Positions 18,916 through 49,205 of a DNA stretch of 49,626 bases are shown piece after piece. Position numbers and translations under genes: made by a program. Every line of letters begins with the position of its first letter. The stretch's first letter is position 1. Origin of the DNA: Atractiella rhizophila (lineage: Eukaryota); assembly GCA_021432655.1 (NCBI GenBank), contig MU271529.1, forward strand, positions 1 through 49,626. Reading direction: 5' to 3'. Under the pieces are notes generated by a model that saw nothing but the letters and a program-made list of their open reading frames with translations, was not told the DNA's origin and searched no databases.

Positions 18916-21202
18916 ATGGAGAGCAACACCCAGGCTCAGAAGAAACAGAAGATCTTGGAATGCCAGTGGGAGGGGTGTCAGTTGACCTACGAGGACCCGT
19001 CAGTCCCTTTTTTTCCTCGACCCCTTTGTTGGCCTGGGATGCTGATTGGTTGGGGACACAGGGAATTGCTATACATTCATCTTTGCAACGATCATGTGGG
19101 ACGGAAGTCGACTAACAACCTATGCTTGACTTGCAAATGGAAGGACTGCGAAGTTACATGCATCAAGAGGGACCACATTACCTCTCACCTTCGTGTACAC
19201 ACTCCCCTCAAGCCACACGCATGCGAGGTTCGTCTTCTAGCTTAAAGTAAAGAGGAACGTACACTGATCGTACTGACGGGATATAGATTTGCTCAAAAGC
19301 CTTCAAACGACCTCAGGATCTAAAAAAGCACGAAAAGATCCATACTGAAGAGCACCACCTCAACCATAAGCATTCGAAAGCCGTCACCGTCCCTGATACG
19401 CATCGAATCGCTCGTGCGAACAGCAGACCTGCCTCTTCTGAAACGCCAACGACATCTGCACCGAATGTTCCCGCTTTTGCCCATCCCTACCACCTTCCGG
19501 GTAAACTTTTCCGGCTTGCTCTCTCGTGCAATGCAAGTGACTGATTGATGAATTGGTAGGCTACTGTCCCTATCCTCACTTCCCACATCCTCACGCCGCT
19601 CCAACCGCTCAGTCCCTGGCCTCCATCGTCGCCCACCAACAGCAACTCAATGCCGTCACTCAGGCTCATCTCCTCGGGATGCAACGATCCGCTCTTGCGA
19701 GCGGTCTCCCACCGTACGGTGCTGCAGGGATGTTTGGATTTAACGCACACTCATATCCGCTTGGTGTCGACCCCACAATGGCAGGCATGGGAATTGGCCT
19801 GTACCCTGCTCTTTCTGGCGGACCATTGAGCAACCCGGTTGGTCTCGGCATGACTGCAATCCCCGGTGCCGGTATTGGTGGAAGAAGCGTCTCGCCGCAG
19901 GAGATAGGAAGTGAGGAGGGAGAGGAGAATATGAGTACTGGCGTAAAGAGGAAGAAGAGGAGCTTCCATGCTGATGCTGTCGCAGCGGAAGAGTTGTTGG
20001 GCGAAATCAAGAGGAAGAGATTGAGCAAGGACCACTCCAAAGAAGGTGCATTTTTAAATCGCTTTTACAATTTGTCAACATTACTAACCAATTTGGTCTC
20101 AGTGGCGAACGGGATGGACGCTATTTCGCTCTTGTTGGGCAACCCACACCCAGAGCTCATCCCAGGTCTACCGTCGCATCCTTCAGATGGTTCTGCATCG
20201 ACTCCCTCGACCTCCTCTCTCACAGGTGATGGAAACTCGCCGCTCAACGACGTGATGCCGGATCTGAAAGCATCAGACATGGACTCCTTGAACAACATCC
20301 TGCTTTCCATCGGCCGCTCATACGAGTCCAACGCACAGGCGCACGGCTTCGACGGACTCGATTCCCTCGATCATGGGTCTCGGGAAGAACACTCCCCTTC
20401 GTCTCATTCTCAGTCCTCTCCTCCAACAATCTCCAGTCTCTATCCGAACTTCGATGGACTACCGAATCTTCTCAACGGACAAAGAGGGCTTCCTTTCCCC
20501 TACGGCCATCATGGAGGAGACATCAAGCTATCTAGGCCTCTCGCAGGTCCTTCCATCGCAACACTCGATCCCTACCTCTCATCTCAAGATGGACGCAAGA
20601 TTGCGACACTCGGAGAAGCTCGCCCAGAAGACAATGATAAGATGGAAGTCGAGCTTCCTCCGATTGTCTCAGCCGGCGAGAAGGAGGGCAAAGGAACTAG
20701 GCTCCCCAGTTTGAAAGACTGGTATAAGGAGAATGGGACCGGAGAACGGTTCGAAAAGGAGCTCTATCCGTCCCTTTCGAGTCCTACGAGCGCAATTCTC
20801 TCCAGACCGTCCACTGCTGCTTCACCGTCGCCTTCGGCAGAACTGAGCAAGAAGGTCGATTCAATGGACCTTGACCATGTCGATTCTCCGCCTACTCCGG
20901 CGACAACTGCGAGTGGAACGGGCAAGAAGCATACTCACGAAGAAATCGAGGAGGGTTCGGAAATGGAGGTTGAGGAAGAGGGGTTGGAGAGGAAGAGGTT
21001 GAAGGTGAAAGAAGCGCAGGAGGAGGAGGAGAGGAAGAAGAAGCTCGAGGTCGTCACGATGCTCATCGTTAAGCTCAACGAGGCATGGAGGGCTGAGCTG
21101 GAGAGGAGGAGGAAGGAAGAGGAGAGGAAGCTGAAGGAGGGAAGGAAGGAAGTGAAGATTGAAGATGTGGAGAGCGTGAGCGTCAGGATTCCGGTCTCGT
21201 GA
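18916..21202 (+). CDS. pacC: pH-response C2H2 zinc-finger transcription factor PacC/Rim101 (true start may lie further upstream)
   Basis: Three fingers CQWEGC...[27 protein letters not shown]...[40 protein letters not shown], the diagnostic PacC/Rim101 signature; YPxL motifs in the C-terminal half. Confidence 0.95.
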
Positions 21203-21715
21203 AAAGAAAGTATTTAGTGCATGGGCTGGTTGACTTTCGTTCGTCCTTCATTGTCTCATTCCGTCGATGTGTTTTTGTCTTGCTTCGATATTCAGGTGTC
21301 TCTCACGTCCTTTCGTTCCCTATTTCTAATCATCTGCCTCCATATCGAATGTATCCTAGGTTGTATGTGTAAAATCAACAGGAATAAATACGTTGTTAAT
21401 AATATCACGATTCCTCGAAAATATGGACTCTGAACGACCAAGACATCCACCACACTATCATACCATATTAAGCGAGTCCTTCAAAAGTCACTAGTCAACT
21501 TCAAGCGGTTGGAGCATGACGTAAGGGGGCCTTTCCAAATATTTAAGACAACTGGTGATCAGGGCTTCTTGTTCATCACGGACAACGTTGCTGGTGCCTA
21601 TACGGGATATCTCAAGGGTTTTGACTATGATGTTGTGTACGCCTTTACTTTAAAATTCACAACAGCAGTCATCACCATCTCGAGAATATGAGCGAGCTTG
21701 CTGGCTCGGACCAAG

Positions 21716-28989: not shown

Positions 28990-30329
28990 ATGCTCGCTTA
29001 CGCTTCCCTGCTCGCACTTTTCTCGGCCGCTTCCGCCCACATGGTTATTAGGAGCCCCGTCCCATACGGCCAGTCGACTTTGGACAACTCGCCTCTTCTC
29101 GCTGACGGATCGAACTTCCCTTGCAAGCGTCTCTACACCGAAGGAGACGCGGCTCGCGCTCAGAACGTCTTCCCCGCCGGCTCCAGCCAGACTCTCGCTT
29201 TCAAGGGATCCGCCGTTCATGGTTAGCATTTCTTTTTTGTTCATTTCGTTTGGAAGGCTGAGAGTGGATGGAATCAGGTGGCGGATCTTGCCAGCTTGCT
29301 CTCACCACTGAGGCTGAACCGACCGTCGACACCGTCTGGCAAGTCATTCATTCGTTCGAGGGTAACTGCCCTTCGAACGTCACTGGAAACCTCGATGCCG
29401 ATCCGAACGGTCTCGGAGCGACCGTCTTCTCCTACGACATCCCGGAGAGCATTCCTTCCGGTTTGCTCACTTTTCCTCTTGCCGAGTTAGACCTGACGGA
29501 AATATTAATAGGTGACTACACCCTGGCTTGGACTTGGTTCAACAAGATCGGGAACCGCGAAATGTAAGAACATGTTCTGAAGTCATGACACAAGCGGCTG
29601 ATTGAATATGGTCGGTAAAGGTACATGAACTGCGCTCCCATCACCGTTACTGGTGGAGGAAAGGGCGACGAGTCTTTCCCCGATATATTCAAGGCAAACA
29701 TTGGAAACGGCTGCACTACCGTCGACAGCCAAAACGTCAAATTCGTGAGTGCCATCATTTACCCGAACAGCTGAAGATTCTAATTTCCTGTCACGTAGCC
29801 CAACCCGGGAGCTTACACTGACGTCCTCGCCGACACCGTCGACCCCGTAGGAACCTGCGAAACGCCTAAAACCTCCACTCCCACTCCTGCCCCCGGCAGT
29901 GGAGGCGACGACGCTCCTGCCACCTCTTCATCCCCCGAAGTCATTTCCTCTTCCTCCTCCTCCTCCGCCCCGGTCAAGACCGTGAGCACCTCCGCCATCG
30001 CCACCGTCTCCTCTGCCCCCGGAAAGAACAACCCCGCGCCGACGACCTCTTCTTCCTCCTCTGCTCCCTCCGTCACCTCCTCCCCATCCACCGGCTCCGG
30101 TAAAGTCCTTACTGGCGCTTGCGAGCCTGAGGGTCTCTACAACTGTCTCGGAAACGCGTTCCAACGTTGCGCTTCCGGGCAGTGGTCTGTTTCTATGAGC
30201 CTTGCGGCGGGGATGAAGTGCACTGGAGGAGAGAGCAGCGAGTTGACGTTGAAGACGACGGATGCGAAGAAGGTCAGGAGGTCCGCTCATAAGGGCAAGA
30301 GGGCGAAGAGCCTCAGGATGCGTTATTAA
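28990..30329 (+). CDS. AA11 lytic polysaccharide monooxygenase (chitin-active family) with Ser/Thr/Pro linker and C-terminal four-Cys X278-like module
   Basis: Signal peptide then N-terminal His (SA|HMVIRSPVPY); [57 protein letters not shown]; C-terminal CEPEGLYNC..FQRCASGQW..LAAGMKC. Confidence 0.92.
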
Positions 30330-38103: not shown

Positions 38104-40636
38104 ATGCAAGCGCCATCGACGTTATACCAGCCTTCGTATCCAGCGGCCGCCCCTCGTCCAACACAGTACAATGCCAGAAACCCTCCACTCCAACATCAAC
38201 AAGCTGGATGGTATCCATCCACACCTCAACAAGCTCAGCATGCCGCGCCGAGCCCTTCATCCGCCCTTCCTGTGCGAAATTATACCAATTCCACTCCAAA
38301 CTCCATCCCCGTCACTGGTCCATCCACCGCCCCACAACCTCAGCGCACCTATTCGCGATCTACGACGACGACTGGTACTGGATTTGGATATCGAAAACGC
38401 GGTGACGTCGCGCCAGCTCCTCCGGTAAGGTCACACGAGGAAATAGAGAGGTTAGCGAAGGCGGAGAGGTGGAGGAAGATTCAAGAAAATCACCTTGAAC
38501 CGGGAATGAGCAATAGGCTTGTATTGAGCATCCGAAGCCGCCTGACGCACGAGATGGATTTCGCTCTTTCCACACTGGTGAAAGTCTCCCGGCATGAACC
38601 CGACCTTATTCGATTCACAGAAATTAGAGGACTGACGGAAGCTTTGGTTGCACTGGTGGAAGAGTTTTTGGAAGCTGTGAGAGGGTCAGAGGGAAGGGAA
38701 TGGGCGAAGAGGGAGCGCATGGAGGAGCTGAGGAGGGCGACGGAGGCAATGCTTGTCTTGAGGAATGCCAGTTTGGATAAGCTCAATCAAAGGTTTTGGA
38801 TCCAGTTTACTGGCTTAACTGTTGTCGGCATCGGGAATAAGAGCTTGTTGAGAATGATCTGCACAGCATTGGAGCCGCAGGAAGGGGTGGAAGAGATTAG
38901 GGGATATGCCATAGAAATGCTCGACATTTTTTGCCCATATATCAAGCTGTCGACCTTACCTCAGAACGATGGAGAAGACGGAGGAACGTACGCCATATCA
39001 TCATTTCACGATCTCGAACCAAGCGTTAAAATTCTACCGCTTCTCCTTGAATACACTCAGTCTCAAGATCGCGCACTTGTCCTCGGCAGTTACAGGTGTC
39101 TCGGGACTCTGGCTCTGGTGGAAGCTAACAGCAAAATGTTTATTCTCCCTTCTATCCATCCATCGACACCAATTCCAGACTTCCCACCTCTCTATCAGGC
39201 TCTCTTCTCAGCTCTTTCCCTTATTCCTCTTCTGGATGCAGATCTTCAACTTGCCGCGTTAGACTTCATTTACCACATCTCATGTCATCCTTCAAATGCA
39301 GCGTATCTCTGTACAAGGGACGACCTTAGTGGCGTCTTGAGTCAGTTGAAGAGAAGATTCGAATGGGGAGCAAAGAGGATGGAAAAGTCCCTGAACCTAG
39401 TGGGAGAGAGATGGAGACAAGATAAGAAGGATCCGGCTTCAGGGCAGGCGCTGCATCAGCTCAGCGAAGATGGAAGTCTCATTGGTACTCGACTACAGAA
39501 TGACGAAATGGCTGAGATCCTAAGTTTGCCTGAACCCAGGAGAACATCGGTTTGGTTCGTCTCCCCCTATACGACGCCTGCTTGGGCGAACGCTGATACA
39601 TTGTAAAACATAGGCTAAAGACTGTTTTTGAGCCGGCTCCGGGTCATGAAGTTCTTCAAGTCGACCTATGGAAAAGTTACCAGGCTAACTTCAGCTCATA
39701 TCCCGACAGACCAATCTTGGTTGCGGCGGATGTGATAAAAGCGACCAGCGACGCAATACCAGGAGCCCAACCGCAGGTTTCAGGTGGTGCGGATGGTAAA
39801 AAACGGTTTATTATTAATGGGATGAAGGTGAGGGATCGGCTAGGTTCGCTCATCCCTTTCATGTCATCTCCCGCTTTGATCAATGAAGTATAGACCTTAG
39901 GAGCTTTTATCGCTGCCGTTGGTCGAATTGCAACGATTACTCTTCTTCCTCGGCTGCCGAGTTGTATGATCATTTGGCAACAAGTCACCTTCACCAATCG
40001 GCATCCGACAATCATGGATTTCTGGGTACTTGTGGGTGGGCATCTGGCTGCAAGTTCGAGGTGTCTCCCCAGAACCGCTCCAATCCATCTTTGCGTCTGG
40101 CGGAGCTGAAGCTTCACGTTCGGACGCATATTCTGCCACATACAACAGAGAAGCGAAGACAAAAGGATTCTGAGCCAGAACCGTCCGTCAAATATGTGCG
40201 TTATCTAGGCTGGGCAGACGAGCAACAGCAACCAGCTGGTATCCCTTTACTTGCAGCTCTAATTATCCGAAACTTGGCGCAAGCCATTCAGGAAGCCATT
40301 CTTTCACCTTCCAAGATCAAACAACTGCCGAAAAAGAACACTACTGTTTATGATACCGAGGGAGAATCGATCCTACTTCAGCTTGACAGGGCTGCTAAGG
40401 AAGCTACTGATTATGTGCACCCGATTGTGTCTGAAGAGGACGATCCAACAGCAAGAGAAGGAGTTGGTCCGGAAGCAGGAGCGCCAGCTCTTGTTCTGCT
40501 TGAGGACGATATTTACCGCTGGATGGTGGACGAGCCTACTCTAGGGCAGATTTTGGGAGAGGTTGTTGTCATCATCAGAAACGTTGCCGAGTGGAAGGAA
40601 CGAAGAGACAAGGAGGAAAATATGATGGAGATGTGA
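38104..40636 (+). CDS. RSC9: RSC chromatin-remodelling subunit Rsc9-like (ARM repeats plus RFX-type winged helix)
   Basis: NRLVLSIRSRLTHEMDFAL, EAMLVLRNASL, EPRRTSVWLKTVFEP, QVDLWKSYQ, AADVIK..RFIINGM, C2H2-like HLATSH / CGW..C..HVRTH, LLAALIIRNL. Confidence 0.82.
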
Positions 40637-43701: not shown

Positions 43702-44924
43702 TGCGGGCAGAAACGTGTTTAATCCAACTGATCGCGTCTCTCTGGCCTACTGTGTCGCTCGCGTCTATATCCAATGGGATCTCGCTCGTCAGGCGTGCGA
43801 GATTGCTCGGTGGGTTATCCGGAAGTCGGTGAGTAAAGCTGCTCAAACAAAATGAAGAGGAACGCTGCAGGTGGCCGAAGTGTTTGCACAACACTAAGCT
43901 CTCTGGGCCACACTTTCGGGAAGCGGATTCCGAGTCAGATCGTAAAATAAATTTCTTAAAAGCTTTTGACAGCTTCAGGACGATGTCCAGAAAAACCAAA
44001 TGCCGGAATGAAGAACAAAGCTGGTGGCGTCGCCAAAGTAGTGATTTCTTGATAAATTTTCAAATCCGATTTGTTTTAATTCACCTCGAGAAGCGAGAAA
44101 TCTGATCAACTGTTGGTCTCTTCCGCCTGCTGCCAGTAGAAAATGCGAGTTGGATGAAGATTTGAGAATATCGAGAAGTGCTGGTTTCGGAGTTGCTGCA
44201 GCCACGTACGCGACGAACGACGGACAAACGACGGAGCTGTACGCCTTTTTTCGACTTACTTAGGTGTGGACCAGAATGTGTTCGTCCAGCCTTGGTCCAA
44301 CTTCCGTCCCTTCTTGAATGTTAGATGAGCTTGGACCAGTGATGGGAGAGCTTTAACCGCGACGGCTCGGATATTAGAGGCTGTAAGAGTTGTAAGTTAG
44401 TTTACGTGCAAACAAAGGAGAGAAAACAAAAGAAGCGGTTTGATATGCTAACCCTGCAATCTGCTATCTTTTTTTTTTTGTTGAATCCAGGTTGTGGGAA
44501 TCCGGCGGCAGAAGCGACTGTAGAATGAGAGTCGTTATACCCGCTCGTTCAAAAGGGTGAGATGTGTCAGGTTCGTTTGCGACGTTTGAGTCGTTCTAGC
44601 TTGTCTGTCGTCCATGATGTGAGGAGAACGCAGCTTTGCCCAGTTTTCATAACAAAGGCTAATTGCCCTACTTTATGCGTTAATACATCGTTCATAGAGG
44701 CCGTGCTGCGTTTAGATTCCTGTCACCGTTTGACATGTTGGTTGTTTGTGTCCTGCATGTCTCCCACTTCACGTCAAGTTGCAATACAACCAACATCAAC
44801 ATGTGAAAGAGACATGAGCACAATTGGTCAAAGATCGTGTGAACTTGTACATTGTTTTCAAAGAGGAGCATCGGTACTGCACATCATTCCATTAGAATTC
44901 AAAGTCCATTTCTCCACGTAACAT

Positions 44925-47900
44925 TTAAATCGACTCGTCGGTATGGTAAGCTGCCCTTCTCATTTCTCCCAATTTCCTCCTCGCGTCTCCTAGCTCTTTC
45001 TCAAGTGTCACAATCGAGACTTGCACCTCCATTTCCCTCATCTTGAACTCGTGCGCACCCATGGAATTGTAGTCCGCATCATCCCTACCCAACATCTGTT
45101 TGGAAGTGATCGCCTTGACTTGCTTGACCAAAGCTTTGCATGCATCCTGAACAGCTTTAGCAGCGAGCTCGAGTTTTTCTTGTGTCTTGCTCATCAGATC
45201 GCTCTTGACCCTGGAAGCTTGAACGAGCTGAGCTGTCGAAGCGGCGACTTCGTTGGAAGCGACGATAAGCTGTTCAAGAGATTTCGAACCGTCAATAACC
45301 CCGTCAGCTGTCTGAATCAAATTCGTCGTCGCCCAAGCTACCGCTTTCGCAGCACTGATGAGACCCTCCGTCCACCGATTATTGCGCTTGTAGAACGCTT
45401 GCGTCGAACCCGACCCTCGTCCCGAAGCGACCGAAGATGGAAAGCTCCCTCTTCCCACCTCTTTAACACCTCCAATAGTTCTCGCGTTTATTGGACAGGG
45501 TCTCGTATCGCCTGCACAACCAGTTATGGTTCCCATAATGTGGGGACTGAGGCCTACTGCTACGGCGGCTTAGCAACTAGTTCCAGCGCTTCTTAGGACC
45601 TCTGCAACCTGAGGCTAAGAAGGAACGGGAAGTCAGTATGGCAGAGCTTCCTGACAGAGGGTGGCGTTCCTTGCTATAACAGCAGTTGTTGTCGTACGTC
45701 TGCGCGTGTCGCAATGTCTTCGAACGCCAACACCATCTCGTCGACTCTGGGTTCGTTTGCTTAGACAGTTTCTGGTCACCCCTCTAACCTCTGGACCAAC
45801 TCTTACTTTACCGGTTACGCCGCTTCCGCTAGCTTCGACGATGGCGAGCAGACGTCCGAGACTACAGCTCCGGCTTCCTAGCTATGAGGCGACATCTGCA
45901 AGTTCAGGTGCTACGATAAGAACTTCGAAGTGACCGGTAGTGGGCGCGGTAGCCTTCTGAATAGGTCCGACGTTGCCTCTGGGTTGTTCTTTAANNNNNN
46001 NNNNNNNNNNNNNNNNNNNNNNNNNNNNNNNNNNNNNNNNNNNNNNNNNNNNNNNNNNNNNNNNNNNNNNNNNNNNNNNNNNNNNNNNNNNNNNNNNNNN
46101 NNNNNNNNNNNNNNNNNNNNNNNNNNNNNNNNNNNNNNNNNNNNNNNNNNNNNNNNNNNNNNNNNNNNNNNNNNNNNNNNNNNNNNNNNNNNNNNNNNNN
46201 NNNNNNNNNNNNNNNNNNNNNNNNNNNNNNNNNNNNNNNNNNNNNNNNNNNNNNNNNNNNNNNNNNNNNNNNNNNNNNNNNNNNNNNNNNNNNNNNNNNN
46301 NNNNNNNNNNNNNNNNNNNNNNNNNNNNNNNNNNNNNNNNNNNNNNNNNNNNNNNNNNNNNNNNNNNNNNNNNNNNNNNNNNNNNNNNNNNNNNNNNNNN
46401 NNNNNNNNNNNNNNNNNNNNNCTCAGGTCTCTCCTCAACCTCTCCAGTTCATCCTTATGCGAACTCTTGAGCCTATCGCTCTCGAATCTCGCACGGTCAC
46501 GTTCTCGAATCATATCAGCCAACTCGAGGTTCTTGGCTTTCATATCCCTCTCCATCCTCTCCATCCTCTCAATTGCCTCCTGCGCGCTATTCGCCTTCAA
46601 CTGGAACTGCTTGAACTTGGAGAGCATGTCGAGATGCTCGGTTCGCAGTTGAGAATACAATTTCGCCAGAGCTTCGTACTTGTTCTTCCACAGCGCGACT
46701 TGCTCCTGCAGCTGCTTGATAAGCTCATCTTTACTCGATAGCTGAGCTGATAGGTTTGCGTTGTAGTTCATGAGCTCTTGCTCGAGGGCTTTCACTCTCT
46801 ACATCCCAGCCCATCCCAAAGTTAGATCAAGAGCACCCAATTGAAGTAATAGAAAGAAGGAATGCCGAACCCTATCATACTGCTCAAGCATCATCTGATC
46901 CCTCTCATATTGACCCCTCATACCCATCATCTCCCTCTCCAGTTCCTGAACCCTCATCAAAGCCTGTTGATCACGTCCCATCTGCATCTGCATCTCCATT
47001 CTCCTCCTCTCCTCCTCCTGTTCCCTCCTCAACTGCTCCATCCTCTCTCTCTCCATCCTCTCCCTCTCCTCCTGCTCCCTCCTCATCGCATCAAACCTCG
47101 CCTTCTCCTCCTCAGCCTTCCTCCTTTCTTCCTCCTGTTTCTTCTTCAAAGCAGCCTGTTGATCTTCATAATGTTTCAACATTCGTCTTTGCTCGTCGAT
47201 ATCCGGCGTGGGCTCGCCGCGGGGTGGAGGGGGAGAGGCGGGCGGCGGTGCGACGGTCTTTGGACGGGCGGGGAGGTCGGGGAGAGAAGAAGAGTCGAAG
47301 AGATTCGGAGGTTCTTGTGGCAGTTTTGGGACGTTGATCAACCCTGTGAGGTACTTCAGGTTCGAGCACTCGTAGTAGAACTTGCGCAGGTTGTAGTGCT
47401 GAGAATTGTACCGCTGTCGAAGTGGCTCAAGCGCATCGGCCGCGTCCGTACCTATTTCCAAGACCCGTCAGTTAGTGGTGCGCTCCAAGAGAGATGAGAG
47501 GAAGGGACGGACGTCGATGCATGGCACGAAGCATCGAGGTGATGAAACGGTAGATCCCATAACTCTCCTTCACCTGAGGGACGAGAGCGCTTATCCTGCA
47601 TTCATTATTTGTTGATCCTCTGAAGTGGGCAAAGATGAGTTTCTGGAAGGAGTCAATCTGGTCCTGTAAGTTCATAAGATCCGAAATGGTCTCGTATCTT
47701 CATCGTCATCCGTTACCTCCTACACATTGCTTTGAGGAGAAGCAGTACATACCCCTCATTCGGATCATCGATACCTTTCAACGTAACATACTCTTCATAC
47801 TCAAAAAGTCCATTAAAATCCGGGTGAGTCTTGTGGAATCTGAGTTTGGCGAGCAAGGAGGACACATAAGCCTTTATGAGCGGCGTATAACCTTCCCGGG

Positions 47901-48596
47901 CACCATCACTCCTCGTCCGCCGGACAAAAGATAGGCATTAATGAGGACCAGCGTACCTCGTCCATCGTTCCCTACCGTCCTTGCACAGGTTTCCAGCCAT
48001 CCTGTCTGCTGCTGCGCTTGCTTGAGCACCTGCAAGTCATCACTCAATACATGTGCCGTTGGCGCGGAAGCAGAGGGGATGCGTAGGGGAACGCACGATG
48101 GGATGCCCTTCTTGAAGGATCTTGTGCACTGTAATCAACGCTTTGAAAGTCTGCACCTCATCTGCCAGAATGGGTTGGACACGGAGGCCAGCCCAAATTG
48201 ACTGGGAGTCGTGATAGTCCCAAGAATAGACGATACACTCTACATCGCCAACAACACGCACCCGGCACCAAGACACCAAGTCAATGACCTTTCGTCACCA
48301 CCCTTCGCCCAGAGGAATGAGGATGGAAGGACGCACTCCGAACATGTTTCTGCTTCGGCGCCGTCTCATCTGGGTTCGTCGCCTTCTTGATAGTCAAAGT
48401 GAGCTCGCTCTCAGCCTTGTCCTTGTCCACGGGTCGAGTGGGCACATGCTGCTTTGTCCCATATGGATCCTCGCGGTCATAGAAGTCCGAACGATTGCTG
48501 GAGCAGGGTCAGCGCGACCTCCAAGGAGGCGGTGGACATTACCGTGACCTATCGAAGCATTAGCAATAAAGAGAAAGACAGCAGAGTAACTTACAT
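44925..48596 (-). CDS. SLA2: Endocytic adaptor Sla2/End4 (ANTH, coiled coil, I/LWEQ); interrupted by an N-gap and a reversed block
   Basis: IKKATNPDETAPKQKHVR, FKALITVHKILQEGHP, CRISALVP, FYYECSNLKYL, WKNKYEALAKLY, FYKRNNRWTEGLISAAKAVA, ASTAQLVQASRVK. Confidence 0.95.
45432..45994. other. 563-nt block reversed without complementation (SLA2 coding sequence); probable assembly artifact
   Basis: Complement read left to right gives a stop-free 187-codon Sla2 segment FYLSREKGGEIVEVIKSANNL...AATETQQEI that joins VASGRGS at 45431. Confidence 0.93.
45995..46421. other. Assembly gap (427 N) inside SLA2
   Basis: Run of N. Confidence 1.
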
Positions 48597-49205
48597 CCTG
48601 TCTGGATATCTTGATCGCAGAGTTGGATTGGAGAGTGTGAATAGTGTGAATAGTCCTTCCTGTCACTACATTGCTGCGTGCCCAAGTCAAGGACTACACG
48701 CTATTACAATAGCCGCTCAAGCAAGGATGGTGAGGGAGGTAGAGGACGATGCATCAGGTCTTTTCAAAGTAAGTGCTTGCAGCTGCAAATTACCTGTGTG
48801 GCCGAACCTCTCGTAAATCTCGCACTTTGTGAGGTTAATTTTGTTAACCCTCTCAACGTAAAAGAGAAGAGCGGAAGGTGTTTTTACGAAACGTATGCAA
48901 TATAATCGCCGATTGAACGGTTCCCATCAGGTTCCTGTAGCAGCTCTTGCGCAAGTTCAATACTACCCATGGGCGGGGAGCATTCCACGATTCTCGATGA
49001 GATCGCTAGGATGCGCTGTATGAGATGTACACGATACGAGTGGTTAGGGAAGAAGAGATCGCACCTCTTGATCCAAAGCAGCGATAGCCCAAGCAAGCCA
49101 CGCGTTTTAAATTTTGTCCATAGTTCCCTGGTGATTTACATTTGGACTGCGATGAGAGAATCCTTCTTGTTCAAATGGCTCCATTAGAGGTCATATGCAT
49201 TTCAG

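Follow-up and report, generated by a model that had tools for sequence, protein, structure and literature searches.

A gap-flanking segment of SLA2 in an Atractiella rhizophila scaffold that reads as Sla2 only when complemented without being reversed

The stretch of DNA analyzed here (the window, 49,626 nt) is an entire scaffold of Atractiella rhizophila, in which the SLA2 gene occupies positions 44925–48970 of the minus strand and encodes, in this order, an ANTH domain, a coiled coil and an I/LWEQ domain. The 3′ part of the gene is written normally at 44925–45431 on the minus strand (168 codons at 44928–45431, followed by the stop codon at 44925–44927), and its translation is exactly residues 896–1063 of KAH8925886.1, another Sla2 protein of the same fungus. 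Pfam recognized PF01608 (I_LWEQ) on the minus strand of 44928–45431 with an E-value of 1.7e−58 and along profile positions 1–151 of 151, i.e., the C-terminal I/LWEQ (talin-like actin-binding) domain that characterizes Sla2/Hip1R proteins. Directly to the right lies a block of 563 nt (45432–45994, not assigned to a strand), which is the subject of this work and almost certainly contains the true plus-strand sequence in reversed, and not reverse-complemented, form. The block adjoins the sole N run of the window, an estimated gap of 427 N at 45995–46421. On the other side of the gap, a normally written coiled-coil exon (46422–46798, minus strand) ends with ...ERLRRDL at the gap edge, and its last 40 residues are those found at 501–540 of KAH8925886.1. 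It is followed by a minus-strand intron of 72 nt (46799–46870), delimited both by the exon borders of the deposited protein KAH8918086.1 at 46798 and 46871 and by a joint in one of the public sequencing runs used below (X3, 46798>46871, CT..AC, equivalent to GT..AG on the minus strand). According to the exon map of KAH8918086.1, the remaining upstream exons (46871–48970, minus strand), which extend to the annotated start codon, carry the ANTH domain and the beginning of the coiled coil. The N-terminal ANTH domain expected of the Sla2/Hip1R family was detected by Pfam (PF07651) in both deposited proteins (E = 4.8e−73 in KAH8918086.1 and 7.7e−73 in KAH8925886.1), as well as by a partial match in the window itself (46799–47467, minus strand).

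Two details of the gene structure were recorded in passing. Five residues of KAH8918086.1 (aa 29–33) were left unplaced by exact matching; they fall into 48497–48886, between the exons 48887–48970 and 48338–48496, and probably reflect codons divided between exons or an exon of minimal size. Furthermore, a 2306-nt contig of X3 that reaches 44936 skips 72 nt at 44381–44452 (joint 44380>44453), with the CT..AC ends of a minus-strand intron approximately 470 nt downstream of the SLA2 stop codon; this intron belongs either to the SLA2 3′ UTR or to a closely packed downstream gene.

A search with the 168 normally written C-terminal residues returned two A. rhizophila proteins: KAH8918086.1 (829 aa), which originates from a 49,626-nt contig and thereby from this scaffold, and KAH8925886.1 (1063 aa, N-terminally partial), which originates from a contig of 114,205 nt. 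Both belong to the same submission and are placed on separate scaffolds. They differ at 2 of 534 positions in their N-terminal part and at none of the 168 in their C-terminal part, and each of the runs X1–X3 contains two variant contigs at 44982–45114, one with 0 and the other with 5 differences from the window; the strain seems to be heterozygous or dikaryotic, with both haplotypes represented in the assembly. KAH8925886.1 is annotated as partial and starts midway in an exon that is single in our window (48338–48496, minus strand), and as the protein begins inside a single exon, its own scaffold must at this position be interrupted by a gap, come to an end or be defective in some other way.

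The 563 letters of the block can be read in 12 ways, i.e., in the six ordinary frames and in six mirror frames (reversed without complementing, or complemented without reversing). When the complement is read from left to right, frame 2 consists of two spare bases (GC) and 187 codons with 0 stops, and its last codon (Ile) adjoins the codons for V-A-S-G that continue on the minus strand from 45431. The remaining 11 readings are interrupted by 3 to 13 stops each (4 to 13 per ordinary frame, 3 to 10 in the five other mirror readings). The coordinates, length, frame and junction given for this block in a preliminary description, which was made from the letters alone, were reproduced exactly. No Pfam family was found in two ordinary-frame pieces of the block (45432–45569 on the minus strand and 45655–45933 on the plus strand).

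All 187 residues of the complement-only frame 2 are identical to residues 709–895 of KAH8925886.1, and in that protein the normally written 168 C-terminal residues follow directly from residue 896 onward. The spare GC agrees with the second and third positions of the codon for Ser-708. Since Pfam locates the I/LWEQ domain of KAH8925886.1 at 909–1058, the block had been correctly described as the Sla2 region that precedes this domain. For a wider comparison, a set of 54 other Sla2 proteins with a length of at least 900 aa was searched by local blastp (cut-off E ≤ 1e−5), the mirror translation being compared solely by scripted comparison with these and the two A. rhizophila proteins. The complement-only frame 2 matched 54 of the 54 orthologues (best E-value 2.45e−77, 51–65% identity over the block), as the preliminary description had expected of the reversed block, and none of the other 11 readings matched any of the 54 at this cut-off. 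The conserved segment located just upstream of I/LWEQ is therefore present in the block, solely in the complement-only reading. The identity of 187 out of 187 residues to KAH8925886.1 excludes a chance origin.

A codon-usage score trained on 8 ORFs (own scores of 0.157 to 0.297) pointed in the same direction, with +0.193 for the complement-only frame 2 and −0.087 to −0.491 for the other 11 readings. Across the window this score discriminates weakly, as some mirror runs lying over ordinary ORFs reach 0.28, and we considered it useful solely within the block, where one of the 12 readings is positive. The open frame as such was given up as a decisive argument. Mononucleotide shuffles of the block reached 187 codons in 1 of 5000 cases, but mirror runs of similar or greater length exist over ordinary ORFs elsewhere in the window, the longest being 267 codons (reverse-only, 20415–21215) and 221 codons (39598–40260), which overlap ordinary long ORFs by 261 and 175 codons, respectively. 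A further stop-free mirror run of 170 codons was observed at 29632–30141, over or near an ordinary coding region. A stop-free mirror frame is a by-product of coding composition, and because the two longest runs sit over ordinary genes, mirror-frame length is a poor signal; any screening for mirrored blocks needs similarity or codon usage and not open-frame length alone.

Public runs were searched with the stretch 44000–45994, and the contigs of four of them (X1–X4, representing at most 3 samples and 3 studies) were placed on 44000–47400. X1–X3 may be the source data of the scaffold itself, in which case they are not independent samples, although this is no weakness when a record is to be compared with its own reads. 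The fractions of sampled words of 44000–45994 that were present in X1, X2 and X3 were 0.60, 0.59 and 0.48, and the normally written part makes up 72% of this stretch; these values would agree with a lack of the mirrored part in the runs, but were not counted as evidence. In all four runs, contigs cover the normal part of SLA2 (44925–45431) up to exactly 45431 and possess loose ends directly behind this position. The 30 letters visible there form a consensus that agrees at 29 of 30 positions with the reversed block, starting from 45994; anywhere else in the window, on either strand, the best match of this consensus is 19 of 30. The one differing letter is a synonymous third-position change in a Thr codon (ACC to ACG in the coding strand), which fits the other allelic differences between the window and the runs. 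Direct read-level support for the reversal covers 30 of the 563 nt, and the remainder rests on protein identity.

At the other edge of the gap, contigs of X1–X3 begin exactly at 46422 and have a loose end before it that reads L-R-F-A-E-E-R-A-E-D-A on the minus strand, i.e., the sequence of KAH8925886.1 from residue 540, in continuation of ...RRD. Between the two edges, none of the four runs had any depth in the bins spanning 45482–46393, and none of the X1–X4 contigs joins across the whole 45431–46422 interval. As contigs and filters produce such holes by themselves, our conclusions are based on the loose ends and not on this lack of coverage. The contigs of X1–X3 that cover 45085–45431 stop exactly at 45431, from where two variant contigs continue, and we infer that the read graph branches at this junction, which would make it a natural border of a contig or component when two haplotypes are assembled. 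As X3 shows two spliced joints (44380>44453 and 46798>46871, each a 72-nt skip with CT..AC ends), it probably represents RNA, while X1 and X2 pass unspliced through 46798–46871; together with the loose end of X3, this suggests that the SLA2 transcript, too, passes 45431 and enters the reversed sequence.

Taken together, we regard it as almost certain that the block is an artefact of assembly or record building and not a biological feature, and that the true DNA is the reverse of the written letters, because the contigs of X1–X4 leave the normal sequence at 45431 into the reversed block (29 of 30 letters). The preliminary description had likewise favored a software error over biology, and both the contigs that pass 45431 with reversed letters and the Sla2 identity of the mirror reading bear this out. 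The opposite reading, in which the scaffold is correct as written and one haplotype carries a reversed, uncomplemented copy of SLA2, is extremely improbable. It draws on nothing beyond the presence of the sequence in the record, apart from the consideration that two haplotypic copies of SLA2 might in principle differ, and we found no support for the block as written being real. Against it, in contigs of all four runs it is the reversed and not the written letters that come after 45431, and the identity of 187 out of 187 residues rules out chance. Owing to the polarity of DNA, any inversion or template switch produces the reverse complement, and we know of no biological process that yields reversed, uncomplemented copies.

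Under the artefact reading, the true plus strand runs up to 45431, continues with the block in reverse order (45994 to 45432), passes through approximately 500 nt that are hidden by the gap, and resumes at 46422. With the block reversed in place, the minus strand encodes residues 709–895 of KAH8925886.1, preceded by the second and third base of the codon for Ser-708, in one Sla2 frame that is continuous with the 168 C-terminal residues up to the stop, just as had been anticipated. The gap itself would contain residues 541–708 of KAH8925886.1, that is 168 codons minus four bases at its edges, or approximately 500 nt if it is free of introns, in which case the 427 N written underestimate the hidden part. 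A plain reverse is the complement of the opposite strand; the simplest cause would be a routine that was due to reverse-complement a piece of the opposite strand and performed just one of the two operations when placing it beside the gap. The responsible program or step is one that we infer, and an extension into the gap that was put down in the wrong orientation, as initially proposed, is a plausible cause. A description of the assembly method used for the A. rhizophila genome was not found in the literature searched, including parts of PMC13347111.

The consequences for the deposited protein differ from what had been foreseen. The preliminary description held that SLA2 would look truncated in automated annotation; KAH8918086.1 is instead chimeric, its 829-aa model being spliced across the gap and through the block. 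The model leaves the exon right of the gap at 46442, skips the gap, resumes in a spurious exon (45696–45863, minus strand, as-written block, 56 residues, aa 580–635, codon-usage score −0.216), and then jumps to 45509, where the last exon begins with a spurious 5′ extension at 45432–45509 (minus strand, as-written block, 26 residues, aa 636–661, score −0.03). After these 26 residues it enters the real frame at 45431. Residues 580–661 (82 in total) have no counterpart in KAH8925886.1, and conversely 361 residues of KAH8925886.1 (535–895) are missing from KAH8918086.1. Pfam still detects ANTH and I/LWEQ in this protein, and with both domains found the model appears plausible to automatic checks.

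The same 82 residues locate the error in the public record, since KAH8918086.1 holds them as translations of the as-written block. A corruption of the block during our own handling of the window, with a flawless public record behind it, can for this reason be given next to no credence: the protein comes from the 49,626-nt contig and its spurious residues correspond exactly to the as-written 45696–45863 and 45432–45509. The gene model was built on mirrored letters, so that the fault must also predate the annotation. This bears on another version of the artefact reading, distinguished solely by where the fault is located, namely that it did not occur in the assembler or during gap filling, but while the public record was built (when the FASTA was generated from components and an orientation table, or at submission). 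We consider this variant rather unlikely, yet it has its merits, because the block lies flush against a contig end and the gap, as a separately oriented component would, and because the junction at 45431 coincides with the putative branch point of the read graph, which would make a natural component border. It is opposed by the annotation, which was made on the mirrored letters, and by the lack of a gap between 45431 and the block, as separate components of a scaffold are normally separated by N. Moreover, the rest of the window is correct on both sides of the gap, whereas a general fault in the treatment of minus-oriented components should affect more than 563 nt.

The biology of A. rhizophila is unchanged by these results, as its SLA2 is an ordinary one, and their value lies in curation. 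A deposited protein with 82 meaningless residues and without about a third of the real sequence can distort alignments, the assignment of orthologues and statistics on domains. Errors of this type are invisible to normal checks, because neither strand resembles the gene and the region is taken for an intron or for diverged sequence. We think it possible, although on balance doubtful, that the block is one case of a systematic pipeline fault that left reversed, uncomplemented pieces at many gap edges of this assembly, and possibly in further assemblies made by that pipeline. Should this be so, spurious peptides produced by gene callers would now circulate in nr and UniRef, and the fault would be cheap to screen for and repair; such blocks should show up in BLASTX searches with the complement-only version of gap flanks. 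Among the literature matches listed, there was no report of reversed, uncomplemented blocks as an assembly error, which is weak evidence, as the wording used by others may differ.

Several known phenomena resemble the block in part. An ordinary misoriented contig would likewise leave a wrongly oriented piece beside a gap, but ordinary misorientation amounts to a reverse complement, so the gene stays readable on the other strand, whereas here neither strand reads as Sla2 and only the physically impossible complement-only reading does. Both this explanation and a true inversion were rejected, given that the three plus and three reverse-complement frames had 0 matches at E ≤ 1e−5 to the 54 Sla2 proteins. 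A natural mirror repeat (e.g., H-DNA-forming tracts) was also considered and does not fit as far as the first 30 letters of the reversed block show, since these, in the form of the loose-end consensus, gave no second arm in the window and attained at best the 19 of 30 matches reported above. The same transformation is known as a deliberate one: reversed, uncomplemented DNA serves as a negative control in two papers, one of them a preprint on repeat annotation that uses reversed genomes as decoys. Such decoy or null sequences are made on purpose and kept apart from the data, in contrast to the block described here, which forms part of a public scaffold and went through annotation. With regard to the gene itself, there is nothing biologically different from the Sla2/End4/Hip1R family, whose ANTH domain, long coiled coil and C-terminal I/LWEQ domain it shares as an ordinary member, and the corrected reading of the block aligns end to end with the 54 fungal Sla2 orthologues.
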